Source: a virus (taxonomy: Duplodnaviria; Heunggongvirae; Uroviricota; Caudoviricetes). Taken from it: a stretch of 19,091 nucleotides of DNA. The notes below the pieces were generated by a model. The model saw only the letters and a program-made list of their open reading frames with translations, was not told where the DNA came from and did not search any database. The position numbers and the translations under genes are program-made. Below are positions 1 through 19,091 of this stretch, one piece after another. The first letter of the stretch is position 1; each line of letters opens with the position of its first letter. Location of the stretch: positions 1 to 19,091 of the IMG/VR virus record IMGVR_UViG_3300033156_000141. One strand, given 5' to 3'.

Positions 1-1
1 A

Positions 2-804: not shown

Positions 805-806
805 TA

Positions 807-814: not shown

Positions 815-840
815 ATAGTATATGCACTATTAATTGTGGG

Positions 841-3412: not shown

Positions 3413-4479
3413 GAGAGAAAGATTTGGTTGAATTAGCTTTAGGTACAGCTGATGTTCAACAGATTACTCCTAGAATTATAGCTAAGACTGTTGATTTTGT
3501 ATCTAGAAGAAAAACTGTAGTATCTCAGATATTTAGAGAGAACAGAGATCTTGAGAAGGTCAAAGCTAGGAGTATTGTTCTTCCTAACGTTACTGAAAGT
3601 ATAACAGTCGAGTCTGTTTCTGAAGGAGGTTCTGTTTCTACTTCCAGTACAATCTCATATACTGGTACCACTGTTGAAGTATCTAAGTTTGGTATAAGAC
3701 TTGAAATAGATAATGAAGCTCTTGAAACTCCAGTAAGAGATGTTCTTAAAGACTTTTTGTATGAAGCTGGTAGAAAGCTGGCTGAAGAACTTGATCTACG
3801 TGCTCAGACTATAGCTCTTGATTTAAAGTCTGGTACGATAACCAGCTGGAGTGGTGGTACACTTGGAAGTACTACACTAACACCGATAGTTGCTATCACT
3901 TCTGTATCACCTGGAGCTACTATAAGTGCAGTTGACTATTATGATGGTAAGGTTCTATTATCAAGTTCTGTATCAGCTGCTACAGTTACATTTCTGTATT
4001 CAAATAGATGCAAATCATCTGGTCTGGTAGTTGATGCTAATAATAAATCAAGTCTTACTGCATGGGACATACTCAATCTTAGATCTACGTTGTTAGCTGC
4101 CACTCTCAATCCAGATATAGTTTTGATAAATAGTAATGAAGTGTCTACTTTATTGTATGATCCAGATGTTTCATCTTTGTTTATAAATGCTAAGCTCTAC
4201 GACAAAGATCTGATAAATGGTGAGATAGGCATGATAGCTGATCTAAAAGTAGCGGAGTCACCACTTGTTCCAGAAGGAATAGCTATTATGGTTGATACCA
4301 GTAGACTAGGGTATCATGTTATAAAGAGAGATTTGGAAGCTGAAGAAGAGAACAAACCAGCAATAGATAGAACATGGTATCATCTATGGACAGAGAGAGA
4401 ATTTGCAGTAGCTGATGACAATGCAATTGGTATAATTGTTAATGCAAAGTCTGGAAGCTTCAGTGCTTCTGACTTATAG
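3409..4479 (+). CDS. Major capsid protein, HK97 fold, with a beta-rich insertion
   Basis: Motif order typical of HK97 MCPs: ITPRII, E-loop VSEGG, KFGIRLEIDNE, spine helix GRKLAEELDL, NPDIVLIN, GEIGMIADLKVAESPLVPEG, C-terminal EREFAVADDNAIGII. 356 aa; follows protease and scaffolds. Confidence 0.88.
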   Translation: MREKDLVELALGTADVQQITPRIIAKTVDFVSRRKTVVSQIFRENRDLEKVKARSIVLPNVTESITVESVSEGGSVSTSSTISYTGTTVEVSKFGIRLEIDNEALETPVRDVLKDFLYEAGRKLAEELDLRAQTIALDLKSGTITSWSGGTLGSTTLTPIVAITSVSPGATISAVDYYDGKVLLSSSVSAATVTFLYSNRCKSSGLVVDANNKSSLTAWDILNLRSTLLAATLNPDIVLINSNEVSTLLYDPDVSSLFINAKLYDKDLINGEIGMIADLKVAESPLVPEGIAIMVDTSRLGYHVIKRDLEAEEENKPAIDRTWYHLWTEREFAVADDNAIGIIVNAKSGSFSASDL

Positions 4480-4532
4480 CTTAAACAACCTTATTTTTAA
4501 ATACTTGTTTTAGTTAGTTAATATGGGAGATA
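4480..4532 (+). promoter_or_regulatory. Intergenic T-rich segment: candidate oligo-T terminator and/or TATA box (TTTAAATA 4496-4503)
   Basis: TTATTTTT directly after the MCP stop. TTTAAATA ends 29 nt before GTG 4533. Contains GTTAGTTAATAT (4513-4524), identical to 796-807. Confidence 0.4.
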
Positions 4533-4901
4533 GTGTTGAGTGTATATTGTAAAAGAGAGAAACCAGTAGGTCAATCTGATGTTCTAGCTTCAGAGACAGG
4601 TATATCTGGAGAAATAGATACTGATACAGATTCTTCTCCAGTTACTGTTTATACTCCACCATCTGGATATAAAGTTAGTACAAGAGCTGTTCATCTATTT
4701 ACTGATAGTACAGCTGGAGAAATCGAAACTAGATTTTCGTCTGGTAAGATAATCGCTAAGATCTATTGTGCTGTTCACACAATGCTATCTCTTCCAGAAA
4801 TAAAGCTCGATGGAGAAATAGATGATCCAATAGAAATAATCTGGGATAGCACTAGTCCTAATTGCAAGATATTTTATCAGATAAGATTCAAGATACTATA
4901 A
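4533..4901 (+). CDS. Hypothetical beta-rich virion protein (possible head decoration/cement protein)
   Basis: 122 aa; GTG start after GGGAG; TVYTPPSG plus alternating hydrophobic strands; sole gene between MCP and tail tube. Function inferred from position only. Confidence 0.55.
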   Translation: MLSVYCKREKPVGQSDVLASETGISGEIDTDTDSSPVTVYTPPSGYKVSTRAVHLFTDSTAGEIETRFSSGKIIAKIYCAVHTMLSLPEIKLDGEIDDPIEIIWDSTSPNCKIFYQIRFKIL

Positions 4902-4937
4902 GTTTTTATATTATTTAGCTACTATTTTATTTGGAAA

Positions 4938-4988
4938 CTCCCAAGTGGGAGCTTCTATAAATAGAACCTAACAAGTGTTAGGTGGAGG
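4938..4988 (+). promoter_or_regulatory. Three abutting inverted repeats around a TATAAATA box, followed by the SD of the tail tube gene
   Basis: CTCCC-AAGT-GGGAG (4938-4951), TTCTA-TAAA-TAGAA (4953-4966), ACCTAAC-AAGT-GTTAGGT (4966-4983); TATAAATA at 4956-4963; GGAGG at 4984-4988. Confidence 0.55.
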
Positions 4989-4996
4989 ATAAGAGT

Positions 4997-5941
4997 ATGA
5001 GCTATTTCACAGATAGATGGGTTAAATTTAGTAAAGAGACTACATGGGGAGAATGGACAACTCCTAGTACATTTCCTAACTATTTGACAGACTGGGCAGC
5101 TACTACTACAGAGAATAAGAATGAAGAGGATCTTATTGGTGGAAGTAGAGACTGGAGAAAAGTTACATGGCTAGAGGAAGGTGTAGTTGCTAGATGGACA
5201 CAGGAGATGGTGTCTGGTAAGATATTTGAATATATACTAGGTTCTACTACTGATACGTCTACTACACCAGTTACATACTCTCCAGCTTCATCATTACCTT
5301 CAATGAGTATCTATAGAGGACTATATCCAGATGAAAATGGAGACACTATAAGTCTAGGATACTATGGTATGAAAGTGGATACAGCTGAGATAACTATTGA
5401 ACAAGGTTCAGATGTACAAATAGAATTGAACTTTGCTGGTAAAGGAGTAACATTACCTACTGCATCAGCTAAACCTTCACTAGATATGACTGTTATGCCA
5501 TTTTCGTTCTATCACTCAAGTATAGATGTTACACATCCCAATGGACAATTTACAGCTACTATGGCAACTAGGTTACGGATCAGTGTAAATAACAACCTAG
5601 AAGCTAGGCTATCGGCTGGTGCTCAGGATTATAGACCAGTTGAAATAAGAGAGGGAGGATTGGAAGTTACTGGAAGATTGACTGTTGGAGGTAACTTTGG
5701 TGAACTGAGCTCTATTGTTCTCAATAGACAGACATGTACTATACAGGTATATTTGATAAAGACAGAGCATACAATACAGATTACTTTGAATAATGTTACA
5801 TTTGGAGAGCTACCAGATGAACTCTCTGGACTTGATGTCATAGAAGGAGAGTTTCCATTCTCAGCTAGACCTAGCTCTGGAAATGATGCTATTAAAGTGA
5901 TAGAGGACTTTAGTGGAACATGGGATAGTCTACCATACTAG
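4997..5941 (+). CDS. Tail tube (major tail) protein
   Basis: FSKETTWGE near the N-terminus, ISVNNNLE and EIREGGLEVTGRLT are motifs of siphoviral tail tube proteins. Start reassigned from GTG 4982 to ATG 4997 because GGAGG lies 8 nt upstream of it. Confidence 0.82.
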   Translation: MSYFTDRWVKFSKETTWGEWTTPSTFPNYLTDWAATTTENKNEEDLIGGSRDWRKVTWLEEGVVARWTQEMVSGKIFEYILGSTTDTSTTPVTYSPASSLPSMSIYRGLYPDENGDTISLGYYGMKVDTAEITIEQGSDVQIELNFAGKGVTLPTASAKPSLDMTVMPFSFYHSSIDVTHPNGQFTATMATRLRISVNNNLEARLSAGAQDYRPVEIREGGLEVTGRLTVGGNFGELSSIVLNRQTCTIQVYLIKTEHTIQITLNNVTFGELPDELSGLDVIEGEFPFSARPSSGNDAIKVIEDFSGTWDSLPY

Positions 5942-5953
5942 AGGTGATAGATA

Positions 5954-6358
5954 GTGACTAAGGATAAGATAGTAACTATCAACGATATAATAGATAGACC
6001 AGTTCATACTATAGATGTACCTGGGTTTGGAAAAGTAAAATATGTAGATCCAACTATGGGAGATAGACTAGATGCTGTAAAAGAGGCTAAGGAAGATCCT
6101 AGATGGGAACACTTGGATGAAGCTCAGAAGCTGTCTCTAATATCTGACTTCGTTGTGCTCAAGATGCTAGTAGAGCCAAAGATAACTAAGGAACAATACT
6201 ATAAGTCTTCTGTTATTGCTCTTGGAAACATAATGGATGCTGTATGGACTGACTATAACATTAGATATCTAAAGCTTAGAGAGAAGAGACAGAAACAGAT
6301 AAAGGATTTTTTAGAACTAACGAAGGAAAGCTTTCCATTGAATATTACTACATTCTAA
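5954..6358 (+). CDS. Tail assembly chaperone (gpG-like)
   Basis: 134 aa between tail tube and tape measure; GAGGTGA SD at 5941-5947; slippery heptamer near the 3' end. Confidence 0.78.
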   Translation: MTKDKIVTINDIIDRPVHTIDVPGFGKVKYVDPTMGDRLDAVKEAKEDPRWEHLDEAQKLSLISDFVVLKMLVEPKITKEQYYKSSVIALGNIMDAVWTDYNIRYLKLREKRQKQIKDFLELTKESFPLNITTF

Positions 6359-6534
6359 AAGAGAACAACTATGACTTTCAGAGAGCTTCAAGGATATTCA
6401 GGAATCTCACCGATATTCAGAGAATGTGGCTATCAGAGATGATAGACATGGAGATAAGAAGACAGAAGAAGGATGAATCACTACATAGGACAGCTGCTAA
6501 AGTATTTGGTTCAAGACGTAGGAGAGTGATATGA
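6307..6534 (+). CDS. -1 frameshift extension of the tail assembly chaperone (gpGT-like; fusion about 193 aa), absent from the ORF track
   Basis: In-frame codons GAT TTT TTA give the heptamer T TTT TTA (6307-6313). The -1 frame (FFRTNEGKLSIEYYYILKE...KVFGSRRRRVI) is open to TGA 6532-6534, one base before the tape measure ATG. Confidence 0.85.
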   Translation, partial: FFRTNEGKLSIEYYYILKENNYDFQRASRIFRNLTDIQRMWLSEMIDMEIRRQKKDESLHRTAAKVFGSRRRRVI

Positions 6535-6535
6535 T

Positions 6536-8194
6536 ATGTCAGCTCCTGATGAGAGTATAGGAATAGCATTAAGGCTGTATATAGATCCTGATGCATACAA
6601 TAAAGTAGAACAGCAACTATCTCAACTTCAGAATAAAATAAACTCTCTTAGACTAAATATGGAAAGACTAGGAAGAACTAGAGCTCCTGTTAGAATAGGA
6701 GATGAAGAAGTAAGAGCACCAAGAAGAGGAGTAGGAGCTAGACCTGAAGTTATTAGATCTATACGAGAGGAATACGATAGATTTGTAGAAGCTAATGCTG
6801 ATTTAATAAAAAGAATGCAGCTTTCTTCAAAGGTATGGAATGATATCGTTAAATTGACCAAAAGAGGAATTGTTAGTCAATCTGAGCTAAACAGACTAGC
6901 CGAAGAATTTGCCGATATAACTGGTATTTCAGTAACACAAGCTAGAAGACAAGTCAGAGTTCTCCAAGCTCTTCAAAGAGAACAGAGAGCTACTAGATTA
7001 TGGAGAGATATCACTGTATTGGCTACATCCAGTACAGCTAGGCAACGTGATTTGAATGCAGCTATAGCTTTGTATGCTAAGGAAATAGGTAGAGCTCAGA
7101 GAGATGTTAGACAATGGGTAGCTTCGTATCAACAAATAGCAAGACAACAACAGATAGCTGCTATATCAGCTCAGTCTTTAAGATATAGACAGGGATTGTT
7201 AGGACAGACTATGAGAGAGCTTGGTGGTACTGTGTTCTGGTTGGGACTTGGATTAATGTTTATGGTGATGTCTATTCAAAGAGTTAACAGAGCTTTATAT
7301 TCAATTACACTAGCAGTTAGAAGTGTAGAAAGAGCTCAGGAAAACTTAAAGCTAGCTCAAGAAGAATATACAAGAACGTTATTTGAATTTGGACCTAATT
7401 CACAAGAAGCTAGGATGGCTTATATGAGACTAAGAGATGCTCAGGAATCTGTTAGAATGTCTCAGATTAGAGTAAGAGAAGCACAAGAGAACTATATTAA
7501 CTCAATTCTTATGTTTGTGTTTGGAACTATACCTACATTCATAAGAGCTAGTATTTCATTGTATGATATTCTTACTAAAATCATAGTTACTAAATACATA
7601 GCTTCGAGAGTTACAGATCAAATGAGTGCTTCTGAAGCTACCTATTTAGCTATTGAAGCAGCTGGTAAACCAGTAAGAGTAATGGCAGTATCTTTGACAA
7701 CTGCTCAAGCTCTAGCAACTAATAAATTGGCTATAGCTGTTGGTCTGGCTACAGCTGGTATTTCACTTCTTATAGGATTACTTGCAAACTACTATGTGCA
7801 ACAACAAATGAATCAAGCTATGTTAGAAGCTACTACTGAGTCCTATCAAAATCTTGAAGGCACATTAACCAGACACTCAGTGGTTGATTCGTTGATTAGA
7901 ACAAGAGAAGAAGTAAGAAAGCTTAATGAAGAATTCACCAGACTTCCATTAAAATCACACTCTCCATTGGAAATTAAAACACAATATGGATGGGCTAATT
8001 TGGGAGCTTTAGATGAAACGGATATTGGTCTTGGTAGAAAGCTATCCGTTACATCTACTAATGTTCAGGTAGGAGTAACTGTAAATGGTCCATTCTATAT
8101 TAGAGAGGAAGCTGATATCAATAAGATAGCAAAAGCTATCCAGAGTCAAATAACTCGTGGAGTAAGAAGTAGAGTTGGAGGTGTCATAACTTGA
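6536..8194 (+). CDS. Tail tape measure protein
   Basis: 552 aa, helical A/Q/R/E-rich, with hydrophobic segments (LGGTVFWLGLGLMFMVMSI; LAIAVGLATAGISLLIGLL), a typical C-terminal VGVTVNG...ADINKIAKAI, and position after the chaperone pair. Confidence 0.85.
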   Translation: MSAPDESIGIALRLYIDPDAYNKVEQQLSQLQNKINSLRLNMERLGRTRAPVRIGDEEVRAPRRGVGARPEVIRSIREEYDRFVEANADLIKRMQLSSKVWNDIVKLTKRGIVSQSELNRLAEEFADITGISVTQARRQVRVLQALQREQRATRLWRDITVLATSSTARQRDLNAAIALYAKEIGRAQRDVRQWVASYQQIARQQQIAAISAQSLRYRQGLLGQTMRELGGTVFWLGLGLMFMVMSIQRVNRALYSITLAVRSVERAQENLKLAQEEYTRTLFEFGPNSQEARMAYMRLRDAQESVRMSQIRVREAQENYINSILMFVFGTIPTFIRASISLYDILTKIIVTKYIASRVTDQMSASEATYLAIEAAGKPVRVMAVSLTTAQALATNKLAIAVGLATAGISLLIGLLANYYVQQQMNQAMLEATTESYQNLEGTLTRHSVVDSLIRTREEVRKLNEEFTRLPLKSHSPLEIKTQYGWANLGALDETDIGLGRKLSVTSTNVQVGVTVNGPFYIREEADINKIAKAIQSQITRGVRSRVGGVIT

Positions 8195-10953
8195 GCAATC
8201 CAGCTCTTCAATCAAGATCATCTGTAGAAGTGTTCTTTCAAGTAGGATATGGAAATGATGGAATGTATGCTTATGATAGTGTTAAGTCTCCTTGGGGATT
8301 CTATCCTACTACAGGATGGAGTAATGATGGAGACATAGCTACTATTGAAGTAGAATCTGGAGAATCAACATTTGAGTCTACAATTCCATCAGCACTACTA
8401 TTAACAATGATATCTTCATCATTTCCAAATGTTTTCTTTAGAGCTAAGATCAAAGAAGCTGGCTCACAATACAAGTATGGAGTTAGGTATTATGATGATA
8501 CAGAAGAATTCTCTCCTTACTATGGTAATGAAGATTGGCAAACTAACTCACTAAGATTGTCAGCTATTGGAAAGAACATTAGATCATTCAAAATTAGTGT
8601 AATAGGCACGATCGAAGCTGACTACTTTATGTTTTGTGGAGACACAACTCCAGCTTATTTAACTATTCTTCCATTGAAAATGGACATTAAAAGAGCTATA
8701 ACTGATGAGATAGATACTGCTGAGTTTACGCTTGACTTTCCAGACTATTGTAACTATGATTTTCTTGGTTCACATATTAAAGTATGGCTAGCTAAGGACA
8801 CTGTAATTACTTCTTCAAGCTTTAGAAAAGTTTTTACTGGGATAGTCGAACATATAAACAAGACAGTTGAAGGTCATGAGCCTAGAAACTTAGTTTTAAA
8901 TGCTAATGGATATGGTTCATATCTTAGAAGGAAAGTGTTTAAGATAGGAAAGTCTATGGCAGGATACACTCATGAAGTTGTAAGAGGAATAGTGGAAGAT
9001 CTTGTTGAAGAAGGGCTAGTAACCACACATCATGTATATGAGACTTCTGAGTCCTTCTATTATTCAACAAGACAGAACAAGTATGCTTCTGATGCATTAG
9101 AAGAGTTAGCTGATAAGTACGATTATGATTTCTATGTTGATGTTGGAAGTGATCTTCATTTCTGGAAAAGAGGAACACTTGAGAGTGATTTGAATATAGA
9201 TATTGATGAGACACATGAATTTCCATATGAGGAGGATTTAGAGTCTGTAATTAATTATCAACAAGTTATAGGAGCTGACGTAGGAACTATTGGGAGTGAT
9301 ATGTTATGGTGTGATCAGCTTAGCAATTGGAGTGCAAGTGGTAATTTGTCCTTGGATAATCAAGTAGTTTATAGTGAAGCTGAGGGGTCTGTATCTCTTA
9401 GAAACTCTGTCTCTAATGCTATGATTTGGTTTGAACGTACTCTTGATCCAAGTGAACAGGATCTTTCACTAGGAGGTGTTTTGACATATGCTTTACAAGT
9501 AAGAGCAAATACTTCAGCTTCTGGATTGTCACCTAAACTTAAGACAAGAAATATGTTCATAAGTCCAAAGGGAACATTTACTGTTGTGGTAGAATCTTCT
9601 GGAGGTTTAAAATCAAAACGAAGCTTAGAAAGATATGATGCAATTCCTTATCCAGATTATCCAGGAGATGACTATTATTTCTGGTACTATCCATTTTCTG
9701 TATTTGAAGTTCCATTTAATTACAAAGCTAGAACACCACCAACTAAAGCTGGGTCGACGATTGACTGGAGTGAAATTCGTACAATAAGAGTTGAAGTGAT
9801 AGAACCTGATACTTCCAGCTCAGAAGGTATAGCTTGGTTAGATAATTTCTATATTAAGGATGTTTATCTCTCAACTATAGTGTCCAGCTATGACTCTATT
9901 GTGAAATATGGTAGAAGAGAAGGAATTCCAATTGGTCCAGATCCTGAACTGGATACAATGGATAAAGTGGCTTTCATTGGTTCTGTAGTAGTATCTGTTT
10001 ACAAAGATCCTATTAGAACAGTTACTGATGTTAAAACTCTAAGGGGATTTGATTTCCAACTCGGATATGAACATACCATTTCAGTTTTAGAAATGCAGAA
10101 TGTTCCATTAATACTTAGAAACATCAGACACGAAGTCAAGGGGATGGATTTTAATACCTATTTGACATTCACAAAGAGACATATACCGTCACCAGAGAAG
10201 CTATTAGCAATTACCAAGAAGCAACTAAGAGCTTATGGATGGGATATTGAGGCTTGGAAAAATGCAAGATCTCCAGCAAGTGTATTTGATACAAGATCAG
10301 AAGCTATTGAATTCTGGGAAGCTGATCTAGATTTTGCTAGAGCAGCTTTAGTTAGTTCAGTCTTTGCAGTATCCGTTGGAGATTCAACTGAAAATTATGG
10401 AGTATTAAATCCAACATACGTTGAGTCTTTTGAAGTTGGTGGAGGTGGTTATTACAAAGTTAGAATTGCAAACTCAGCTGGTCATTTATCTGGTGTAAAG
10501 TCAAAACTAAGATCATTAGATGGAAATAATAAAATACAATTTAGATTCAAAGCTGTACCAGAGATTTTTAGCTCTACTTCGGAAAATAGACACATGATAA
10601 TTGGTATTTACGATCCAGATACTGAATCTGGTTATCATTTTTACTTTGAAATGCCTGCTCTTGAAACAACTGGTACATTGTACTTTGTAGTAAACAACCC
10701 AGGAATTTCTACTTACAACACAGTTACTATCGGTACGTGGGCTAGTGGCAATACTTATGATTGTTGGTGTATAGTTGATCCAGATGTAAACAGAGTACAC
10801 ATATTACTTGATGAAGAACATATAGATACTGTCACAGACAATATAGTTTCTGGAACATTTCATCCATTTTCAGTGTATGGGTATACTGGTGAGGTTACAG
10901 CTGGTAGTATTCAGGTTGAATTATACGGTTATCAGGTGGCATATGCATGGTGA
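8191..10953 (+). CDS. Tail tip hub/Tal-like protein with additional beta-sandwich (carbohydrate-binding-like) domains
   Basis: KRAITDEIDTAEFTL, DALEELADKYDYDFYVDVGSDLHFW and SIVKYGRREG resemble hub-type tail tip proteins. TTGA overlap with the tape measure stop. Confidence 0.65.
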   Translation: MSNPALQSRSSVEVFFQVGYGNDGMYAYDSVKSPWGFYPTTGWSNDGDIATIEVESGESTFESTIPSALLLTMISSSFPNVFFRAKIKEAGSQYKYGVRYYDDTEEFSPYYGNEDWQTNSLRLSAIGKNIRSFKISVIGTIEADYFMFCGDTTPAYLTILPLKMDIKRAITDEIDTAEFTLDFPDYCNYDFLGSHIKVWLAKDTVITSSSFRKVFTGIVEHINKTVEGHEPRNLVLNANGYGSYLRRKVFKIGKSMAGYTHEVVRGIVEDLVEEGLVTTHHVYETSESFYYSTRQNKYASDALEELADKYDYDFYVDVGSDLHFWKRGTLESDLNIDIDETHEFPYEEDLESVINYQQVIGADVGTIGSDMLWCDQLSNWSASGNLSLDNQVVYSEAEGSVSLRNSVSNAMIWFERTLDPSEQDLSLGGVLTYALQVRANTSASGLSPKLKTRNMFISPKGTFTVVVESSGGLKSKRSLERYDAIPYPDYPGDDYYFWYYPFSVFEVPFNYKARTPPTKAGSTIDWSEIRTIRVEVIEPDTSSSEGIAWLDNFYIKDVYLSTIVSSYDSIVKYGRREGIPIGPDPELDTMDKVAFIGSVVVSVYKDPIRTVTDVKTLRGFDFQLGYEHTISVLEMQNVPLILRNIRHEVKGMDFNTYLTFTKRHIPSPEKLLAITKKQLRAYGWDIEAWKNARSPASVFDTRSEAIEFWEADLDFARAALVSSVFAVSVGDSTENYGVLNPTYVESFEVGGGGYYKVRIANSAGHLSGVKSKLRSLDGNNKIQFRFKAVPEIFSSTSENRHMIIGIYDPDTESGYHFYFEMPALETTGTLYFVVNNPGISTYNTVTIGTWASGNTYDCWCIVDPDVNRVHILLDEEHIDTVTDNIVSGTFHPFSVYGYTGEVTAGSIQVELYGYQVAYAW

Positions 10954-11231
10954 AAAGAATTATAATACTTAGGAAAAGAAACATCATAAAAGAGCTGGAA
11001 AATCTAGGGTTCAATGTGCTTTATGCAGAAAACGATAAGATTGTACTAGAACCTAAGGATTCAAACGCTACTCTATCAGCTAGAGCATTAAACAAGATTC
11101 TTCCTGGTTGGGAGAAAGAAGAAACACTTAAAAATAAAATTAAAGATACTGAGATAAAATCAATGATGAGAGCAGCTAGGAGGATGATACATGCCGATAG
11201 CAATTCCAATTCGGGTAATAAAGATAGTTAA
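10947..11231 (+). CDS. Hypothetical protein
   Basis: 94-aa ORF overlapping the hub stop and filling the gap; no recognised motif. Confidence 0.55.
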   Translation: MVKRIIILRKRNIIKELENLGFNVLYAENDKIVLEPKDSNATLSARALNKILPGWEKEETLKNKIKDTEIKSMMRAARRMIHADSNSNSGNKDS

Positions 11232-12042
11232 GAAAACATACAGGCGATTACTTAAGGAATTTCTTTCCATAAGAGAGAAAACTAATCTATTTGTTAATCT
11301 GAGTAAGTCAGTCAGTATTATAGAACGATTTGTACATAGAATGATCTTAAGAGATTTACTTAGCATCGGTTATTGCATCAAGATAAAAATTCTCCTATTT
11401 GAAGACATTATTTTATCACTGATAACCAAGATAGCTCTAAAGCTAAGAAATTACATTTCATTATATGAAAGACTAGTTATCAACTTGATGGTACATGATA
11501 CTGAGACTATTGTTAAGAATATTAAGATCAATCTAAGCTTACTTGAAAATCTACTTCAATCAGAAATTATTAAAGTCTTAATCTCTCTAAGGCAATCCAT
11601 ACTTACCTTTGAAAAATTGAAAATGCACTTGTTTATGACAGATATTCAATCAATCAGTAGTAAAATATCCTTAGTAACTAAGCAAATTGAAAGTGCTCTT
11701 GTAAATGAGCTACAGAATATTTATTTAAAAATAACCAAAAATGTATCTGCTAGTGATTTTCTTAAGAGAACACATCTGTTTATGAAAGAATCGTATTCAA
11801 TATTGAAGAGTATGAAAATGAAAATATCAAATCTAGTAGAAAACATAACATTATCTGATCTTTATCAGACACTCAAGCTTAAGCTTTCGAGTTCAGTGAC
11901 TCTATCAGAGAATCTTTATTACGAAGTTTATCCATTTGTATATTCTCTGGATATAGTCACTGGATATCCAAGTAAGACATTCCCTTCACTTGATATTACT
12001 AGTACAGAAGTTAAGACTTATGGGGAAGTTACTATATCATGA
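11191..12042 (+). CDS. Fibre-shaft-like protein with 14 tandem 16/17-residue repeats
   Basis: From aa 21: ten consecutive 16-aa units, then three 17-aa units and a final unit; consensus roughly L-x-E-x-I-S-I-x-E-x-I-K-I-x-L-x. Confidence 0.7.
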   Translation: MPIAIPIRVIKIVKKTYRRLLKEFLSIREKTNLFVNLSKSVSIIERFVHRMILRDLLSIGYCIKIKILLFEDIILSLITKIALKLRNYISLYERLVINLMVHDTETIVKNIKINLSLLENLLQSEIIKVLISLRQSILTFEKLKMHLFMTDIQSISSKISLVTKQIESALVNELQNIYLKITKNVSASDFLKRTHLFMKESYSILKSMKMKISNLVENITLSDLYQTLKLKLSSSVTLSENLYYEVYPFVYSLDIVTGYPSKTFPSLDITSTEVKTYGEVTIS

Positions 12043-12059
12043 AATATAGGTGAGTGAGT

Positions 12060-12353
12060 ATGAGTGAATATAAGATAAATGAAGTAAGAGTTGAAGGAGA
12101 TACAGCTCTTATAGTACTTATGTCTGATACTGATGGATTTGGAGTATCAATTGCATATTCACAGTTACTAGAGATGTCAGAATCTGAACTAGATGCATTT
12201 CTACAGTCCAGAATCAAGGAACGAATTAAACATCTAGAAGCTGTAGAAAAAGAGAAAGAAAATAGCAAGAATAAAGAAGAACATATTAAACATCTAGTTG
12301 GAAAGAAGATCAAAATTTCTAAAGAAATAATCGGTGAAGGAGGTGAAGAATAA
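12060..12353 (+). CDS. Hypothetical tail-associated protein
   Basis: AGGTGA SD 6 nt upstream of ATG 12060 (track start GTG 12054); beta N-terminal half, charged helical C-terminal half. Confidence 0.65.
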   Translation: MSEYKINEVRVEGDTALIVLMSDTDGFGVSIAYSQLLEMSESELDAFLQSRIKERIKHLEAVEKEKENSKNKEEHIKHLVGKKIKISKEIIGEGGEE

Positions 12354-12539
12354 ATGATCACTAGCAACCAAGAGATATCTGTCCTTATAGAGAAGATAGC
12401 TAGGAATCTACAGTCTGCTATATGGGTTCTTCAAAACACTATGGAAGATCTTCAACGGTTAGGAGTATTGATATCTGAGATTAATAGAGAACTACAAGAC
12501 AAGAAAGAGAATAAGACTAAGACCAAGGAGAAGAAATAA
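12354..12539 (+). CDS. Small coiled-coil protein (possible fibre chaperone)
   Basis: GGAGGTGA SD at 12339-12346; 61 aa with heptad pattern; TAATG coupling to the fibre gene. Confidence 0.65.
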   Translation: MITSNQEISVLIEKIARNLQSAIWVLQNTMEDLQRLGVLISEINRELQDKKENKTKTKEKK

Positions 12540-13735
12540 TGCTAGATTTCAAGTATGACATAGAGACTGGTAATCTCTTTCTGTTTGATTCAAGTAGAGT
12601 AGAGTCTATTGTAAAAAACATATTAAAGAAAGGATTCAAACTTGGAGATAACACTATCTATCTTAGACCAACATATATAGATATGGATGGTAATCCAATC
12701 CAGAATGCTGGAGACATGTATCCTAAAACAAGCGGAACATACTCGTTAGGATCTTCAAGCTATAGGTGGCGAGACTTATATTTAGCCAATAGAGTTTTTA
12801 TGAGCACAGATCGTCCAATAGCATTCGGAGATCTTGCGTTTGTATGGGGAAGATTTGATTCTGCAAGAATATCTTTTAATGCGTGGTATAATGGGTCAGC
12901 GTGGCAAATTCCAAATGCTTCGTACAGGAGTTCTCTTATAGATATCGGTATTGCTACTGGCTATACATGGGGAGATGCAATAGGATTTTACTTTACACAG
13001 ACACCTGGAGGAACCGATTTCGACGAGAGGGCTGTCTTAGATTATTTGGGAAATCTGAAAATAGACGGCGATTTTGATGCTTCAGCCTTGAAAATAGGCG
13101 GAACTGAGGTTCTGACAAGCGGAAGAGTATTGCAGAATATTGCTTCAGTAGCTCAGAGTTTACTTCCAAGCTCAGACAACACACACAACCTCGGCAGCTC
13201 AAGCTATAAGTGGAAGAATGGTTATATAATCACTAATGTAATCGGTTCTGGACTGTCACTTCCGAATAACATCGCTGGAGAATTGCATGTAGGCTGGAGA
13301 AAATATGGCACATCTGGCAACTATGAGGTCAGCAGAATAGCAATACAGCCGCCGTTTCATACTGGAGGACCGTTCATAGTGTTTGCGAGAGACGAACCCA
13401 CTAATGCATATCTCACCTTGAAATATGGCACTAACAAAATTTTCGAAATACGTCATAACGGCTTATTATGGCTTTTCAATACTGCCTATCTAAAAACTAT
13501 CTTACCAGACGCAAATAACGCCTTCGACCTCGGAAGTTCAAGTTACAGGTGGAGAAATGTTCATGCCGTCAACCTCTACGGTACGGCTCATTATGCAGAT
13601 GTCTATTTCCAAGATCTTGTGTGTCCTCTCTGTCATAAAAGGTTTAAAGAACATGACAAGCTAGTATTGATAGTAACTAAAGTATCGGATAAGGAAATAA
13701 GATGTCTTCCAGCTCATCTGGAGTGTGATTCTTAA
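12539..13735 (+). CDS. Tail fibre / receptor-binding protein
   Basis: Three P-x6-LGSSSY[RK]W repeats (12722-12784, 13166-13228, 13505-13567) typical of fibre knuckles, separating Gly/aromatic beta domains. C-terminal CPLC...HLEC putative metal site. Confidence 0.8.
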   Translation: MLDFKYDIETGNLFLFDSSRVESIVKNILKKGFKLGDNTIYLRPTYIDMDGNPIQNAGDMYPKTSGTYSLGSSSYRWRDLYLANRVFMSTDRPIAFGDLAFVWGRFDSARISFNAWYNGSAWQIPNASYRSSLIDIGIATGYTWGDAIGFYFTQTPGGTDFDERAVLDYLGNLKIDGDFDASALKIGGTEVLTSGRVLQNIASVAQSLLPSSDNTHNLGSSSYKWKNGYIITNVIGSGLSLPNNIAGELHVGWRKYGTSGNYEVSRIAIQPPFHTGGPFIVFARDEPTNAYLTLKYGTNKIFEIRHNGLLWLFNTAYLKTILPDANNAFDLGSSSYRWRNVHAVNLYGTAHYADVYFQDLVCPLCHKRFKEHDKLVLIVTKVSDKEIRCLPAHLECDS

Positions 13736-14460
13736 TGGGGTTTACGTGGAGTAGGACTATAACATCTGGTACAGATATTCAGGATAGTGATGTTAATGAG
13801 ATAAAGAACAATATCGACACTATATATTCTGAGCTAGGAATCAATTATCCTGGATGTACTGGAGCTGGATGGGTTGAGCTACCTGTGTCTGCTAATGATC
13901 CAATAGAGTCAGCTGACTTCCAAGAGCTAAGGGATCGTCTTGATTATGGATGGGACAATCGTTGTCCATCTCATGATGCAGCTGACTACACTACTTATGA
14001 TGATGCAGTGCAGACTTCAGATAATGACAACCATGATAGTAGCCATCATAATGATGATAACGAGACTCACTGGGAGCAACACTTCGATGTGCACTACTAC
14101 GACGAACATACAGGGTACCAGGGCTCACACCAGAGTTCAGATTACACAGGTGAACATGTCTCAGACTGGCTTACTGATTATTCAATCCACTATGATGGTG
14201 TCAAAGACTCTGCTGATGCGTCAGACTATCCTGGTGACTACACCAGTTACAATACAGGTCACGATTCAAACTATAACGGCTCATATTACTACAGTGATGA
14301 AGGAATAGTCTATATTGATGATCATGGCACATATCGTTCTGGAGTAGATGCATCTGACAATACCTCGGATTACACTTCCTATTGTAGTACTCACAGATCA
14401 GGAGCTGATGCTACTTATAATAGTAGTGTTAATTCTGACTATAATACTATAATTACATAG
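13735..14460 (+). CDS. Tetrapeptide-repeat His/Asp/Tyr-rich protein A (putative radical SAM substrate or virion fibre protein)
   Basis: Two copies of a W-x5/6-G/N-x2-I-x3-D-x2-E-[IL]-[KR]-x3-D leader-like domain, then 41 uninterrupted tetrapeptides; TAATG-coupled to the fibre gene. Confidence 0.8.
   Translation: MGFTWSRTITSGTDIQDSDVNEIKNNIDTIYSELGINYPGCTGAGWVELPVSANDPIESADFQELRDRLDYGWDNRCPSHDAADYTTYDDAVQTSDNDNHDSSHHNDDNETHWEQHFDVHYYDEHTGYQGSHQSSDYTGEHVSDWLTDYSIHYDGVKDSADASDYPGDYTSYNTGHDSNYNGSYYYSDEGIVYIDDHGTYRSGVDASDNTSDYTSYCSTHRSGADATYNSSVNSDYNTIIT
13963..14454 (+). repeat. Array of 41 degenerate tetrapeptide units
   Basis: CPSH DAAD YTTY DDAV QTSD NDNH DSSH ... RSGA DATY NSSV NSDY NTII; position 4 is H/D/Y in 31 of 41 units. 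Confidence 0.85.
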
Positions 14461-14469
14461 GTGATTGAA

Positions 14470-15054
14470 ATGCCATTTATTTGGACTCAGGACATTTCAG
14501 TTGGAGCTGCTATAGATGCAACTGATATAAATGAGATTAGAGACAACACGGATACTCTATACGATAATATGTGTTCTTCTCACGACTCTTCCTACTGTTC
14601 AGATCATAAATCTAACGATCTAGATACAGATGATGTTACTGTTGAAACTGATAAGACTGGTGTTGATGCTGAATACTTCTTTGAAGACTGGTCTGAATAT
14701 TGGACTGGAGTTGATTTAGACTACTGTCCAGATGATAAATCATCTCACTTCATCAATGCCTTAACTGATCATTTCACTGGTGATCAAGGCATCTATTATG
14801 CGTCGTTTCTAACAGGTGACGATGGACTAATATACTCAGCAGACTATACAAACCACTTAAATGATCATCATAGTGGATATGATTCCACTGATCGTACCTC
14901 AGAGGATATCGGACACGATAGTGGATATGACGGTGTATATAATTCTTCAGCTAAAACATCAGAATATTCTGGAGATAAAGGTGTTCATTATTCCTCGTAT
15001 TATGATGATGACAAAGGTGCTGTTTATTCTACACACAATTCGAGTGTGGTGTAA
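14470..15054 (+). CDS. Tetrapeptide-repeat His/Asp/Tyr-rich protein B (paralog of A)
   Basis: One leader-like domain (FIWTQDISVGAAIDATDINEIRDNTDTL), then about 39 tetrapeptides. Start reassigned from GTG 14461 to ATG 14470 because AGGTGA lies at 14459-14464. Confidence 0.8.
   Translation: MPFIWTQDISVGAAIDATDINEIRDNTDTLYDNMCSSHDSSYCSDHKSNDLDTDDVTVETDKTGVDAEYFFEDWSEYWTGVDLDYCPDDKSSHFINALTDHFTGDQGIYYASFLTGDDGLIYSADYTNHLNDHHSGYDSTDRTSEDIGHDSGYDGVYNSSAKTSEYSGDKGVHYSSYYDDDKGAVYSTHNSSVV
14572..15048 (+). repeat. Array of 39 degenerate tetrapeptide units with one 3-residue register slip
   Basis: CSSH DSSY CSDH KSND LDTD DVTV [ETD] KTGV DAEY FFED WSEY WTGV ... KGAV YSTH NSSV. Confidence 0.8.
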
Positions 15055-15056
15055 AA

Positions 15057-16316
15057 ATGGAATCAGTTGAGATATTAACATCAGCTTGGTGTCCTCTGAA
15101 CTGTCGTTACTGCTACATTCCAAAGACTCCATATATGAAAGAGATGCATGAGAATGTTAGAAAACAGATTAGAAATTATTTAGAAGAAGTCAAGTTACGA
15201 AAGGTCCCATATATCAGCTTCTGGGGTACAGAGCCACTGACAACTATTATGGATATTGATATTGACAGCTTCTACCATGATAAGCTACAAAGCGTCTCAT
15301 TCTCTACTTCACTACTGTATCATCCAGAACTGCTAGTCAAATGGATAGACAAAGTAAGACCACGTAACCTTGCTCTGAAAGTTCAAGTATCTTTAGATGG
15401 TCCTAGCTTCATCACTGACAGAAATAGGGCTAAAGGTGCATCATCCAAGATTCCTGAGAACTTAATGAATATTGTAAAAGACTTGAACAAAATAAATCTT
15501 GGACAGACAAGAGTCGAATTTACGTTTAAACCTACATTGACAATTGAGAATCTAGAAGGTTTAATAGAGAATCCAACTTTGATGGAGGAGTATGTCGGAT
15601 ATTTCAGGAGTATTGAGTGTGATTTCAAAAATACAAATAGGAATAAGAATGTAGCATTAAGGTATGGCAGCTACAGTCCTACAATGATGGTCCCTGGAAA
15701 GTACACTAGTACTGATGGTAAGATTTTTGCTAGATTTGTGAAGCTAAGTTATGAGAAGGGACTCAAGACATCATATCATTTCAGACTTAGAAGACTTTAT
15801 GATTTTGGATATGAACTTCATAAGAAACGAATGTTTACATGCTCAGGTGGTGACTCTAACTTTGGATATGACGGCAAGTGGCATATATGCCATAGAAGCT
15901 TCTATTTAGATAAGAAAAACTATGTTCAATCTGTTCTAGAAACTGATATTGAGAATTGGGATGTATCCTTGTTTGAGACTGGCAAAATAGATCTAGTAAG
16001 ACAGTATATTACTTCTGATGAAACTAGACTAAAATATGTATTACGTGGTCATCATGATTTCTGGAAGTTAGGAATCTCTTCTGTAATTGCTAGATTAAAA
16101 GAGCTTGCAGCTTGTAATCAAGTAAGTAGAATATATGAATCTGATGAGATAGCAACTAAGTTTGCTATTTTCTCTCAGAGCTGCATAGATTGCCCTATGG
16201 AAAACTTATTAAATACTGGTTCAATACATATAGTACCAGTATCTCTTATTAGACTATTCTGTAATGGAGCATTTGAAGAAATAGATAGGAGGGTAAGAAA
16301 TGAGCTATCAATCTGA
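15057..16316 (+). CDS. Radical SAM protein with a remodelled SPASM/twitch-like C-terminus
   Basis: CPLNCRYC (CxxxCxxC) at 15090-15113; WGTEP (GGEP-like); VSLDG; C-x10-G-x4-C at 15840-15890; late CIDC...C, but no CX2CX5CX3C. Confidence 0.9.
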   Translation: MESVEILTSAWCPLNCRYCYIPKTPYMKEMHENVRKQIRNYLEEVKLRKVPYISFWGTEPLTTIMDIDIDSFYHDKLQSVSFSTSLLYHPELLVKWIDKVRPRNLALKVQVSLDGPSFITDRNRAKGASSKIPENLMNIVKDLNKINLGQTRVEFTFKPTLTIENLEGLIENPTLMEEYVGYFRSIECDFKNTNRNKNVALRYGSYSPTMMVPGKYTSTDGKIFARFVKLSYEKGLKTSYHFRLRRLYDFGYELHKKRMFTCSGGDSNFGYDGKWHICHRSFYLDKKNYVQSVLETDIENWDVSLFETGKIDLVRQYITSDETRLKYVLRGHHDFWKLGISSVIARLKELAACNQVSRIYESDEIATKFAIFSQSCIDCPMENLLNTGSIHIVPVSLIRLFCNGAFEEIDRRVRNELSI

Positions 16317-17574
16317 GAATGATAAACTACTAAATTCATTTCTAGAAAGAACATTTTTTAAAGGATTTAAGTATCCAAGAGAATATCCAAACTGGTCAAG
16401 GTTAGAACTATATATGAATACAAGGTGTAATCAAAATTGTAAGTATTGTTACCTTGCACGTTATGGAGCTAAGCTCTATCCAGAATTTGATCAAGACAAG
16501 GTTATTAAAAATACCAGAAAGCTTCTTCATTGGTTGGATTATAATGACTTTCATCCTAACTTAGAACTATTCTCTGGTGAACCACTAGTACAATCTACTG
16601 GTTTTAAGGTTATAGACATGGTATTAGAACACAAGATTTCTTCACTAATAATACCAACTAATTTTAGCTTTATGCTGGATGATAAATTAGTTCATAAGGT
16701 CGAGGAACGTATTTTAGCTGCTAAAAACAGAGGGATTCGTCTATTTCTGAGTGCATCAATTGATGGTAAATATTGTGAAGAGAATAGACCACTTAAAGGA
16801 TATGAAATAGATCCACGTGATGACTCATTCTATGATAAAGTATTTGGATTTTGTAGCAAGTATAATTATGGATTTCATCCAATGGTATATTCAGAGCTTA
16901 TTGAGAACTGGTGTGATAACTTCTTATGGTTCCAAGATATGTTCAAGAAACACAAGATACCATGGTGGAATCTCTACCTACTAGAGGTACGAAATAAAGA
17001 GTGGACTAAAGAACAGATAGTGGAACTAGGTAACTTTATTAAGTTCCTAGTAAGATGGGTATATAACAAGACTGGTAAGGATGGATTTGTTAACTTTGTG
17101 TTTCGTGGTAAAGGATTTAATATTCTAAGTAATCCTCTTACAAGAGTTGGACGTGGTATAGGTTGTTCTATTCAATCAGTTATGTGTACTCGCCTACAAG
17201 ACCTAGCTATATTTCCATGTCATAGGACATCATATCCTCAGTTCAAAGTAGCTCAGTTTGATGAAAATATGAATATTAGGGCATACAATCCAGATCTTTG
17301 GATTACTATTTTGACTTTAGATGCTAATACCTTACCATATTGTGAGACTTGTCCAGTAAAGCATTTATGTGGTAAAGGATGTCTAGGTTCACAATATGAA
17401 GTCACAGGTGACTTATTTACACCTATTCCTACAGTATGTGAGATGGAACACTGGAAATTGTATAGTTATATTGAAGCTTTGAAAGAGATAGAAATGTTAG
17501 ATACTATCAAGAATACTGTCGAACTTAATAAAAGAAACTGTATTGAATTCTTGGAGGGTGAAATAAAGAAATGA
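16300..17574 (+). CDS. Radical SAM/SPASM domain peptide-maturase-like protein
   Basis: CNQNCKYC at 16426-16449; FSGEP; SASIDG; GCS...FPCH, then C-x2-C-x5-C-x3-C-x18-C (aa 348-380), the canonical SPASM spacing. Confidence 0.92.
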   Translation: MSYQSENDKLLNSFLERTFFKGFKYPREYPNWSRLELYMNTRCNQNCKYCYLARYGAKLYPEFDQDKVIKNTRKLLHWLDYNDFHPNLELFSGEPLVQSTGFKVIDMVLEHKISSLIIPTNFSFMLDDKLVHKVEERILAAKNRGIRLFLSASIDGKYCEENRPLKGYEIDPRDDSFYDKVFGFCSKYNYGFHPMVYSELIENWCDNFLWFQDMFKKHKIPWWNLYLLEVRNKEWTKEQIVELGNFIKFLVRWVYNKTGKDGFVNFVFRGKGFNILSNPLTRVGRGIGCSIQSVMCTRLQDLAIFPCHRTSYPQFKVAQFDENMNIRAYNPDLWITILTLDANTLPYCETCPVKHLCGKGCLGSQYEVTGDLFTPIPTVCEMEHWKLYSYIEALKEIEMLDTIKNTVELNKRNCIEFLEGEIKK

Positions 17575-18515
17575 TATTTTATTTTAATCTTAATGTAGGA
17601 GGAGGAATAGAGAGAACAGGACATGTAGTTGAAAGTATGCTATCAGATGCATATGTCTATCGTTTTCAGAATCCAGGATTTCTTATGTTTGAAGAACTTA
17701 TGAAAATTCAACCAAATGTAATTATAATGAATGAGCAGTTTCCACGTGTTATGGAAGCTGTGTATTATTATCAGCTAACAAGAAATTGTCGTATTATTCT
17801 TTTGAATCACTGTTATAGCAATTTAAATGGTAGAAACGAAAATGACCATGATAGACAACTTCTAGTTAAGAAGCTTTTACAAAGAACAGATGCTATTATA
17901 AACTTGAACTATGTACCAAGAAACTGTAGTTTATCCAGAAATGTAATAAGACTTTATCATCCTTGTAATCCAAAGTTTCGTCTTAAGATTCCATGGAACG
18001 ATAGACCAAGAAAATGTCTCTACTGGGGAAACTTATTACCTCATAAGTTTGATGTTAAACTCTTGGAAATGTATAGAGACATAGATATTTATGGAACTAT
18101 TCGCTATGATGGTGAATATAGAGATAAAATATTAGAAAGTGGATGTTACAAAGGTTATATTCCTGAAGATAAATTGGTTGATACTATTAATGAGTATAAA
18201 TATTTTGTAGTACCTCATAGCGGTTATGAACCATTTATGTTGACATTACAAGAAGCTATGCAGTGTGGTACTATACCTTTAGTAACTAACTCTAGAGATT
18301 ATCCAAAATCATACTGGATTGATTGGGCAAAGGGACTCTATTATGAGTTTGGATCATTAGATCTTCTTGTTAGATGGTTTAAGAGAGATCGTAATTTATC
18401 CGATTTCTCATTTTATATTTCAGATGAAATTCAAAAGAGACATAGTTATGAACGCTTTAAGATTATATTATGGTCATTAATTAGACAGAATCTGAAATGG
18501 GAGGTGGAGATATGA
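17571..18515 (+). CDS. Glycosyltransferase, GT-B fold, GT4-like
   Basis: N-terminal GGGIER; C-terminal YEPFMLTLQEAMQCGTIPLVTN carrying the E-x7-E motif (18228-18254); ATGA overlap with the rSAM/SPASM stop. Confidence 0.85.
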   Translation: MIFYFNLNVGGGIERTGHVVESMLSDAYVYRFQNPGFLMFEELMKIQPNVIIMNEQFPRVMEAVYYYQLTRNCRIILLNHCYSNLNGRNENDHDRQLLVKKLLQRTDAIINLNYVPRNCSLSRNVIRLYHPCNPKFRLKIPWNDRPRKCLYWGNLLPHKFDVKLLEMYRDIDIYGTIRYDGEYRDKILESGCYKGYIPEDKLVDTINEYKYFVVPHSGYEPFMLTLQEAMQCGTIPLVTNSRDYPKSYWIDWAKGLYYEFGSLDLLVRWFKRDRNLSDFSFYISDEIQKRHSYERFKIILWSLIRQNLKWEVEI

Positions 18516-19021
18516 GTGTGAATGACTTCTATAAGTGTTCAGAAGAGGTAAGACACTTACTGAAATTTAGAGACTTTGATAGGTTGTTTGGTAAGATGTC
18601 TTCAGAAGCTAGAGCTGTAATAAACACTTGTATTACTGATATGGAGAAGATAGCATCTGGGACCAAGATTATTGGTGATACCAATAGAGTACATAGAATG
18701 GTGGACATAGTTTTAGACAGAGTTACTAGAGAATATATTTCACCATATCTACATGATTTCTGTGAGAAATGTGGATTGCTTCTCTATAACTGGAATCAGT
18801 CCATTGAAAATCCATCAAAATCTTTAGCTACTAAGTTATGTGCAATTGATCGTCTAGTGAAATCACATTATACTATGTTAGATGCTATCAGAGTACTTAG
18901 GAACTTGACTAGGAGACCGTATACTCCAGCTGCATATGAATTAAGTAGACATTATTTACGAGCAATACATAATGAAAATAAAGAAATAAATACAAAAACT
19001 ATTAAAGATAAATCTCAGTAA
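18512..19021 (+). CDS. Hypothetical alpha-helical protein coupled to the glycosyltransferase
   Basis: GGAGGTG SD at 18500-18506 and ATGA overlap at 18512-18515 favour this start over 18497; no recognised motif. Confidence 0.7.
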   Translation: MSVNDFYKCSEEVRHLLKFRDFDRLFGKMSSEARAVINTCITDMEKIASGTKIIGDTNRVHRMVDIVLDRVTREYISPYLHDFCEKCGLLLYNWNQSIENPSKSLATKLCAIDRLVKSHYTMLDAIRVLRNLTRRPYTPAAYELSRHYLRAIHNENKEINTKTIKDKSQ

Positions 19022-19042
19022 TGTATATGGTGGTGTTTATGA

Positions 19043-19091
19043 ATGATTGAGAAAACTAAAGTAACTGAAGCTATTAGAATAGTTGTCAGAG
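19043..19091 (+). CDS. Start of a 3'-truncated ORF (MIEKTKVTEAIRIVVR...)
   Basis: ATG 19043 preceded by GGTGGTG (19029-19035); open to the window end; only 16 codons visible. Confidence 0.35.
   Translation, partial: MIEKTKVTEAIRIVVR

Follow-up and report, generated by a model that had tools for sequence, protein, structure and literature searches.

Radical S-adenosylmethionine (rSAM) enzymes are known as maturases of small peptides that are made by the ribosome and modified afterwards (RiPPs) and of a few proteins. The rSAM enzyme TvgB modifies one residue in each TVGG tetrapeptide repeat of TvgA (PMC9062424), while HxsB and HxsC, together with the partner HxsD, mature the HxS-repeat protein HxsA (PMC13128918). 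Here we describe two adjacent genes, encoding proteins A and B, from a tailed virus (Caudoviricetes; IMG/VR record IMGVR_UViG_3300033156_000141). The source record is complete, with a length of 109,754 bp and direct terminal repeats, and the stretch analyzed, referred to as the window, comprises its first 19 kb (positions 1 to 19,091). A and B are the sole members of their type in the 110-kb genome, and both end in a long array of four-residue units (tetrads). The reading that we favor, with a probability of roughly 0.6, is that a fiber-like protein at the viral tail-fiber module has A and B as its two chains, and that the tetrad is the repeat unit matured by two adjacent rSAM enzymes, rSAM1 and rSAM2, before assembly. 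rSAM maturation would thereby be tied to a widespread, unannotated structural family.

The TvgA/TvgB system (PMC9062424), in which an rSAM enzyme acts on a core of repeating tetrapeptides, is the clearest precedent for an rSAM substrate with a period of four. However, TvgA is a short peptide in which the repeats are almost identical, and it is accompanied by one rSAM enzyme and an oxidase/peptidase set, whereas A and B are two proteins of 190–240 amino acids (aa; relatives reach about 500 aa) with degenerate tetrads, two rSAM enzymes, a helical partner protein and a tail-fiber context. A TVGG-repeat core is not found in the family, the position profiles of which differ from T-V-G-G. The HXS system (PMC13128918) resembles the locus in that two rSAM enzymes and a small partner mature a repeat-bearing protein, and rSAM2 weakly matches HxsB. 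In contrast, HxsA is an antiphage effector that has a domain for binding peptidoglycan plus five His-Xaa-Ser repeats (period 3), whereas A and B have a period of four, tens of repeats and two substrate chains. rSAM1 and rSAM2 do not qualify as HxsB or HxsC equivalogs, and the 174-aa partner of the locus has no match to HxsD (PF27806) at E ≤ 0.01. A description of the A/B family, or of rSAM-modified virion fibers, was not found in literature searches. New here are the strict register that is kept family-wide, the A/B architecture with its length matching, the heterodimer prediction and the finding that cyclophanes are no general rule.

The four-residue register of proteins A and B

Each of the two proteins consists of an N-terminal domain followed by a cysteine, the junction Cys, that leads into the repeat core:

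13735..14460, + strand: protein A, 241 aa
13735..13962, + strand: N-terminal domain of protein A (residues 1–76), with two copies of a helix motif and Cys41 after the first copy
13963..14460, + strand: junction Cys77 of protein A and 41 unbroken tetrads up to the stop codon
14470..14571, + strand: N-terminal domain of protein B (residues 1–34), with one copy of the helix motif (one match to a hidden Markov model, HMM)
14572..15054, + strand: junction Cys35 of protein B and about 40 tetrads, with one three-residue unit at 14644–14652

The longest open reading frame (ORF) of protein B starts with a GTG at 14461 and ends at 15054. Since all homologs begin with M-x-F-x-W, the true start is most likely the ATG at 14470 (MPFIW...), nine bases past the stop codon of protein A.

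Read from residue 77 (nucleotide 13963), protein A parses into 41 tetrads with one residue left over. Position 4 is Asp in 12, His in 10 and Tyr in nine tetrads (31/41). Position 1 is never Gly, Ala, Ser, Thr or Val and is aromatic (Tyr, His, Trp or Phe) in 17/41, while positions 2 and 3 are in majority Ser, Thr, Gly, Asp or Ala. These counts exactly reproduce those of a preliminary description of the DNA, which had also held that protein B keeps the register with a single slip. Protein B indeed comprises six tetrads, the three-residue unit ETD (14644–14652) and a further 33 tetrads. The slip is a recent one-residue deletion, because the orthologs L002_B and L007_B are one residue longer at this site and slip-free.

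Shuffled controls, which had been named as a check on the period, bear it out. For the residue classes HDY, YHWF and STGA, the period-4 Fourier power amounts to 3–9 in A and 2–6 in B against a shuffle mean of about 0.2. In both proteins this exceeds the shuffle mean by a factor of 10 to 40 and is reached by 0/2000 shuffles, and among periods 2 to 16 none besides 4 is prominent. Across 13700–15100, Tandem Repeats Finder detects no DNA repeat except a trivial 8-nt duplication, so the tetrads are not DNA copies, as the preliminary description had also stated. In protein A orthologs with approximately 50% core divergence, all 41 tetrads align with zero indels, and position 4 is the best conserved.

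The register as a family trait

A profile search over 1.8 billion cluster representatives (E ≤ 0.001) yields 217 relatives, and the A/B family comprises at least 217 clusters at 50% identity. The periodicity analysis covered 150 representatives whose core spans 32 residues or more, namely A and B of the window plus 148 relatives (one per 50%-identity cluster), and the period-4 power exceeds z = 4 in 133 of them. A register tracker, which scores only small versus non-small residues and cannot distinguish positions 1 and 4, follows about 3,661 tetrads with 40 slips, or approximately one slip per 90 tetrads. Slip-free cores are found in 111/141 proteins, with the longest uninterrupted runs extending over 266 residues. 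The homologs thus keep the register, and the earlier proposal that the spacing rather than the sequence is selected is judged to be right.

These observations can be set against the view that the cores are low-complexity, disordered spacers that arose by replication slippage, with a register that is not under selection. The abundance of Ser, Thr, Gly, Asn and Asp in the composition, like the low structural confidence described below, would suit such a spacer. However, this explanation is already contradicted by the lack of a DNA repeat, by a register that passes without indels through about 50% divergence, and by its presence in 133/150 distant representatives with so few slips, and we regard it as hardly credible.

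The family consensus is degenerate, with residue type varying at each of the four tetrad positions. Position 1 is occupied by N (22%), D (21%) or Y (14%), position 2 by S/T/G/A (68%), position 3 by T/G/S/A (75%), and position 4 by Y (20%), V (14%), H (14%), D (13%) or E (9%); the most frequent tetrads are DSGY, NSTV, NGTY and NSGY. Of the 230 core Cys, 93% lie at position 1, as do 71% of Lys and roughly one half of Asn and Asp. Val is placed at position 4 in 58% and at position 1 in 4% of cases, and 97% of Gly is found at positions 2–3. The distribution of Cys, Lys and Val indicates that positions 1 and 4 are chemically distinct. The richness in His, Asp and Tyr seen in the window is lineage-specific: in other members position 4 is filled by Val, Glu, Ala or Gln, and some retain the register with only 3–5% aromatic residues.

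This lineage dependence bears on two further proposals of the preliminary description, a poly-His/Asp metal-binding fiber and a tight β-solenoid with stacked His/Asp/Tyr ladders, here taken to mean that the enzymes have no role in the repeat and that such ladders would bind metal ions or build the solenoid. Iron binding by HxH motifs is known from the gp37 needle of phage T4, position 4 of protein A is predominantly His, Asp or Tyr (31/41), and a weak super-period of 16 residues (four tetrads, z up to 7.9) could fit solenoid coils. However, a poly-His/Asp fiber is unsupported as the reason for a period that members without His/Tyr richness share. A solenoid is likewise unsupported, as the super-period is weak and AlphaFold2 returns a predicted local distance difference test (pLDDT) score below 50 for the whole repeat region of A, even with a 70-sequence alignment. 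With the obligate linkage to the enzymes also left unexplained, both proposals appear very improbable.

The super-period itself is seen in the position-4 residue class across 151 proteins. Aliphatic residues alternate, with an autocorrelation that is negative at odd and positive at even tetrad lags and peaks at 4 tetrads (16 residues, z 7.9), and aromatic and acidic residues return at lags of 4, 8 and 12 tetrads. It could reflect either a structural unit of 16 residues or block duplications.

Protein A has no curated model in Pfam, PHROG or NCBIfam, and protein B has in these databases only a sub-threshold match to DUF7532 (18 bits versus a cut-off of 27). Searched against Pfam, 70 relatives give just stray matches to unrelated models, each in 1–2 members. 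The N-terminal motif and the repeat are also found at the C-terminal end of far larger proteins (594–960 aa) in L019 (1355–3136), P0208 and P0245, which suggests that these proteins are an A-type chain fused to a fiber protein.

Pairing and length matching of the two chains

An HMM of the N-terminal motif gives two matches in A-type proteins (ORF residues 3–38 and 48–72 in protein A) and a single match in B-type proteins. Nearly all loci have an A-type gene with a B-type gene next in order, and a recognizable pair comprises one A-type chain, in which the N-terminal helix motif occurs twice, and one B-type chain, in which it occurs once. In the N-terminal domain of protein A, W5, E22, W46, P50, R66 and D70 are near-invariant among 70 sequences. 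The sole invariant residue is the junction Cys, which is present in 70/70 A-type and mixed sequences (Cys77 in A); in 28/28 B-type sequences the junction Cys35 is invariant, along with M1 and W5.

Core lengths, counted from the junction Cys to the C-terminus, were compared for 31 loci. Between loci the cores range from 57 to 424 residues, while within a locus A and B agree to within 6 residues in 20 of the 31. The two lengths are strongly correlated (r = 0.94), and the observed matching is reached by 0/50,000 permutations. In the window the cores measure 165 (A) and 160 (B) residues. The longest pair (L128, 334–3200), with cores of approximately 424 and 420 residues and thus more than 100 tetrads each, is length-matched still. 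An ungapped comparison of the A and B cores reveals no peak at shift 0, where the likeness is no better than at other register-keeping shifts (12% versus 5–11% in the window). Equal length is therefore not a relic of recent duplication, and this comparison does not demonstrate in-register covariation between the chains.

In L014, L015, L016, L018, L025, L125 and L131 the cores are unequal, with a difference of 33–41 residues (about nine tetrads) and either chain being the longer one. In protein A of the window, the distance from Cys41 to Cys77 is also 36 residues, which equals the length of one N-motif module.

AlphaFold2 predicts the N-terminal domain of protein A alone with high confidence (pLDDT of about 94 for residues 1–76), with helices at 17–34 and 59–74. 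Predictions of the A–B complex yield ipSAE interface scores of 0.80, 0.80 and 0.76, versus 0.00 for the best control. The ipSAE mark is met by 58/80 solved complexes and 2/110 mismatched pairs, rates that are only rough, custom alignments having been used. Contact agreement between runs is at least 83%, with a partner pLDDT of 46–52. The confident part of the predicted interface comprises residues 1–35 and 57–80 of A and 1–37 of B, and the models support an arrangement in which the three helix motifs form an A–B bundle with both junction Cys at its exit. A PDB fold search with the A model returns only generic helical matches (best Z 5.4). A viral fold library gives weak matches of the A N-terminal domain to uncharacterized rudivirus proteins (E 0.47 or worse), and no inference is drawn from either search.

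Radical SAM enzymes and the conserved module

The genes that surround A and B in the window are the following:

12539..13735, + strand: tail-fiber protein, 398 aa (PHROG tail-fiber and tail-spike families, E 2e-10 to 4e-5)
15057..16316, + strand: radical SAM enzyme 1 (rSAM1), 419 aa (Pfam Radical_SAM; CxxxCxxC at residues 12–19)
16300..17574, + strand: radical SAM/SPASM enzyme 2 (rSAM2), 424 aa, with a 17-nt overlap with rSAM1
17571..18515, + strand: GT1-family glycosyltransferase, 314 aa (Pfam Glycos_transf_1, E 3.9e-8)
18497..19021, + strand: all-helical partner protein, 174 aa, conserved after rSAM2 in viral and cellular loci

The window also encodes a major head protein and a tail-tube-like protein. 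In related viruses a fiber or spike gene occupies the position equivalent to the 12539..13735 gene, and this fiber gene directly upstream places A and B in the tail-fiber module. The order fiber, A, B, rSAM1, rSAM2, (glycosyltransferase), helical protein is kept in related viral contigs, and the same order without the fiber gene recurs in long, apparently cellular Parcubacteria-binned contigs beside tatC and tatA. Among loci retrieved via the A N-terminal domain with enough flanking DNA, rSAM1, rSAM2 and the helical partner are all present in 14/14; shorter metagenome loci end inside rSAM1 and are hence outside this count. The aromatic-poor member L119, the one such locus that is readable, retains all three genes, while the contig of the aromatic-free member P0147 is too short to show enzymes.

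Several loci depart from the common layout. On the 238-kb contig of L119, the gene calls break the rSAM2 homolog (9101–10445) into two ORFs, one of 93 and one of 336 aa, so that it is either split or frameshifted, and the helical partner stands before rSAM1 instead of after rSAM2. In L011 (3718–10813, 539-kb contig), the genes immediately ahead of the module, which has a 197-aa substrate, two rSAM genes and a 167-aa partner, encode an HxsD-family protein, another rSAM enzyme and a TPR protein, so that the module adjoins a possible second maturation system. On the long Parcubacteria-binned contigs L005 (2051–8954) and L012 (3614–11000), tatC, tatA and three small ORFs stand immediately upstream of the module. 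Judged from this gene neighborhood, the matured (folded or cross-linked) protein may in cells be exported by the twin-arginine translocation (Tat) pathway. A deposited-phage collection searched with the cassette and with rSAM1, at the DNA and protein level, gave no match. A scan of viral contigs with the single rSAM2 protein gave none either, whereas an alignment-based scan did match.

The enzyme rSAM1 scores 39.2 bits with Pfam Radical_SAM (cut-off 29.5), and its C-terminal part is SPASM-like but incomplete. rSAM2 contains the CxxxCxxC motif and scores 21 bits with the same Pfam model, below the cut-off. Its SPASM domain matches TIGR04085 with 27.5 bits (cut-off 27) and has the pattern C-x2-C-x5-C-x3-C, and none of the rSAM and SPASM Cys residues varies among 42 sequences. 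These motifs place both enzymes in the Radical SAM/SPASM peptide-maturase superfamily, with the rSAM motif in both and the SPASM domain in rSAM2. Their NCBIfam matches are solely peptide-maturase rSAM/SPASM models (AmcB, PapB, HxsB, SCIFF maturase and others). For rSAM1 the top match is a weak one to AmcB, and PapB is matched weakly as well. For rSAM2 the best match is PapB, over the full length, with 49.8 bits versus a cut-off of 340, and its other matches include the HxsB model TIGR03978 (31.5 bits versus 370), which is not among the matches of rSAM1. The models of cyclophane-forming enzymes give 35.5 bits versus 425 (AmcB), 29.3 versus 310 (GrrM/OscB), 25–27 versus 445 (YhhB) and 15 versus 370 (FxsB), far under the cut-offs for placing rSAM1 or rSAM2 in these families. 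In total 709 homologs of rSAM2 were found, at about 45–50% identity, and those in species-representative genomes come mostly from bins of candidate-phyla-radiation bacteria and DPANN-type archaea.

The glycosyltransferase is a less constant component, being kept in L002 and L007, missing from L005, L009 and L013, and fused to rSAM1 in L012. This fusion (6488–8980) is a single 830-aa rSAM1–GT1 protein, and it ties the glycosyltransferase of the window (17571–18515) functionally to the module. The helical partner is homologous to the protein after rSAM2 elsewhere (BLASTP E 2e-12; invariant W-N in the alignment) and is predicted by AlphaFold2 as a six-helix bundle (pLDDT 85). It has no PDB fold match (best E 0.3) and no Pfam family at E ≤ 0.01, and in the AlphaFold DB it matches only two uncharacterized proteins at 24–26% identity, which are probably its own family. 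A PqqD-like recognition element was not detected.

Candidate modification chemistry

The preliminary description had interpreted the repeat as a grid of modification sites, with three-residue cyclophanes between an aromatic residue at i and the residue at i+2 as an example. The grid as such is strongly supported by the obligate genomic linkage of A/B-type proteins to two rSAM peptide-maturase-like enzymes, whereas the cyclophane rule does not hold family-wide. Triceptides (HaaB, HtkB; PMC11499958) are likewise formed by rSAM/SPASM maturases on short, often repeated motifs, and A and B contain many aromatic-X-X triplets. Cyclophanes linking the aromatic ring at i to the C-beta at i+2 in most A/B tetrads would be in keeping with the abundance of Tyr and His at positions 4 and 1 and with the top NCBIfam match of rSAM1, the cyclophane former AmcB, next to GrrM/OscB and YhhB. 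In the family as a whole, Gly is also slightly rarer at position 3 (18% versus 24%, p = 3e-4) and Ser/Thr commoner there (50% versus 41%) when position 1 is aromatic.

Unlike in triceptides, however, the aromatic residue is not conserved in the A/B family, Gly is tolerated at i+2 and the enzyme scores are far below the cut-offs (25–35 bits versus 310–445). A conserved aromatic-X-X unit with a C-beta on its third residue is not found, and in A and B of the window it is present only as composition. Gly is the i+2 residue for 18% of the aromatics at position 1 and for 13% of those at position 4, the choice of residue at i+2 is unaffected when position 4 is aromatic, and only 51% of the position-4/position-1 junctions contain any aromatic residue. 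Furthermore, members with 3–5% aromatic residues keep the register, and in one of them, L119, the two rSAM genes and the partner are retained. With aromatics dispensable and Gly allowed at i+2, a triceptide-like grid cannot explain the family-wide period, and as an account of A and B themselves we consider it improbable.

An alternative that we rate as unlikely, though less so than a triceptide-like grid, is that the period of four is purely structural. The cores would then adopt a regular multi-chain fold, for instance with repeated Asx or β-turns like those of the NANP repeat in the circumsporozoite protein of Plasmodium, and the rSAM enzymes would act at one or few sites, chiefly the junction Cys, for example by a thioether that locks A to B. 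The sole invariant residue is indeed this Cys, it lies within the predicted A–B interface, and residue type is variable at all four tetrad positions. The nearest enzyme models include the thioether formers PapB, SCIFF maturase and QhpD, and the junction C-x-x-H-D of both A and B has the spacing Cys-X3-Asp. Ranthipeptide precursors are Cys-rich, with several Cys-X3-Asp/Glu motifs; A and B have three Cys each, and in the family 93% of the core Cys occupy position 1, with another position 1 following four residues on that is N or D in 43% of tetrads. Assignment to the ranthipeptide PapB family does not follow, as the score of 49.8 bits remains far from 340. The structural explanation would, however, require two rSAM enzymes and a partner to be conserved everywhere for merely one or two sites. 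It also has to contend with the 93% of additional core Cys at position 1, suggesting that this position is used all along the core, and with an unmodified core that shows no fold in AlphaFold2 despite the 70-sequence alignment.

For the preferred reading, in which the rSAM pair matures the tetrads, three chemistries can be ranked. C-alpha epimerization at the small positions 2–3 would come first, because it alone is independent of residue type and would explain both the exchange of Gly, Ser, Thr and Ala at these positions and the failure of structure prediction. Side-chain cross-links through position 1, at which Cys, Asn, Asp, Lys and Arg are enriched, would rank second, and modification of the junction Cys alone third. 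The proteusin enzyme PoyD is an rSAM epimerase. Epimerases of this kind place D-residues in a regular pattern and give folds that an L-only prediction cannot model, as may be the case here. The same applies to the epipeptide enzyme EpeE/YydG (PMC13012085). In contrast to the tetrads, the periodicity of these systems is 2 rather than 4 and none of these enzymes is among the NCBIfam matches of rSAM1 and rSAM2, which makes the parallel a hypothetical one.

A proposed maturation pathway

The equal-length tetrad cores would be the substrate, and probably also the product scaffold, of the rSAM pair. In the predicted complex, the N-terminal helices dock A to B, by which the junction Cys are brought together and the cores leave side by side. 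The rSAM pair may then dock through the helical partner and the N-terminal domains, and would act repeatedly along the cores, approximately once per tetrad. Subsequently, the glycosyltransferase would add sugar to the Ser/Thr/Tyr-rich product. The outcome would be a rigid, chemically stabilized fiber tip.

Several points weigh against this pathway. The modification is proposed from sequence, and the specific chemistry is guessed. The enzyme scores lie far below all curated family cut-offs, and the reaction is thus not readable from homology. There is no side-chain pair conserved across tetrads, and hence no obvious universal target for a cross-link in every unit; tests of whether one tetrad position depends on another (aromatic to i+2, N-x-S/T sequon, acid to aromatic) show weak effects only, and no target pair emerges from them. 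The complex model places the N-terminal domains only, while the cores stay at low confidence. Length matching has exceptions, as one chain is longer by about 36 residues in 7/31 loci and 4 loci differ otherwise. In addition, we infer the virion location of A and B from gene order only, and the occurrence of the module in apparently cellular candidate-phyla-radiation contigs indicates that it is not intrinsically a virion device.

Collagen has a strict Gly-X-Y period and three length-matched chains, which are modified by prolyl and lysyl hydroxylases (2-oxoglutarate oxygenases) and then glycosylated. As a functional analogy, A and B would share with it a short, near-uninterrupted period, matched chains and one repeat position that is modified and then glycosylated. 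The two differ in period (3 versus 4), in chain number (three versus two predicted) and in enzymes (oxygenases versus rSAM), and they are not homologous. More tentatively, and with the odds somewhat against it, A and B may represent a new class of fibers: two-chain, length-matched, with a period of four, and attaining the native fold only after one rSAM modification per repeat (D-residues or cross-links). Such fibers would form the fiber tips of tailed viruses of ultra-small archaea and bacteria and be exported by Tat in candidate-phyla-radiation cells, as an equivalent of the collagen principle that prokaryotes and viruses build by radical chemistry.

Implications

The family is spread over viral tail-fiber modules and over genomes binned to candidate-phyla-radiation bacteria and DPANN archaea. 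The register, the length matching of A and B and the invariant junction Cys offer concrete experimental handles on it. If one modification per tetrad is indeed made, the family would represent a new protein architecture that depends on chemistry, and viruses would have a new route to build or harden receptor-binding fibers. The rSAM pair would then be iterative enzymes for very long repeat substrates of up to about 100 tetrads.

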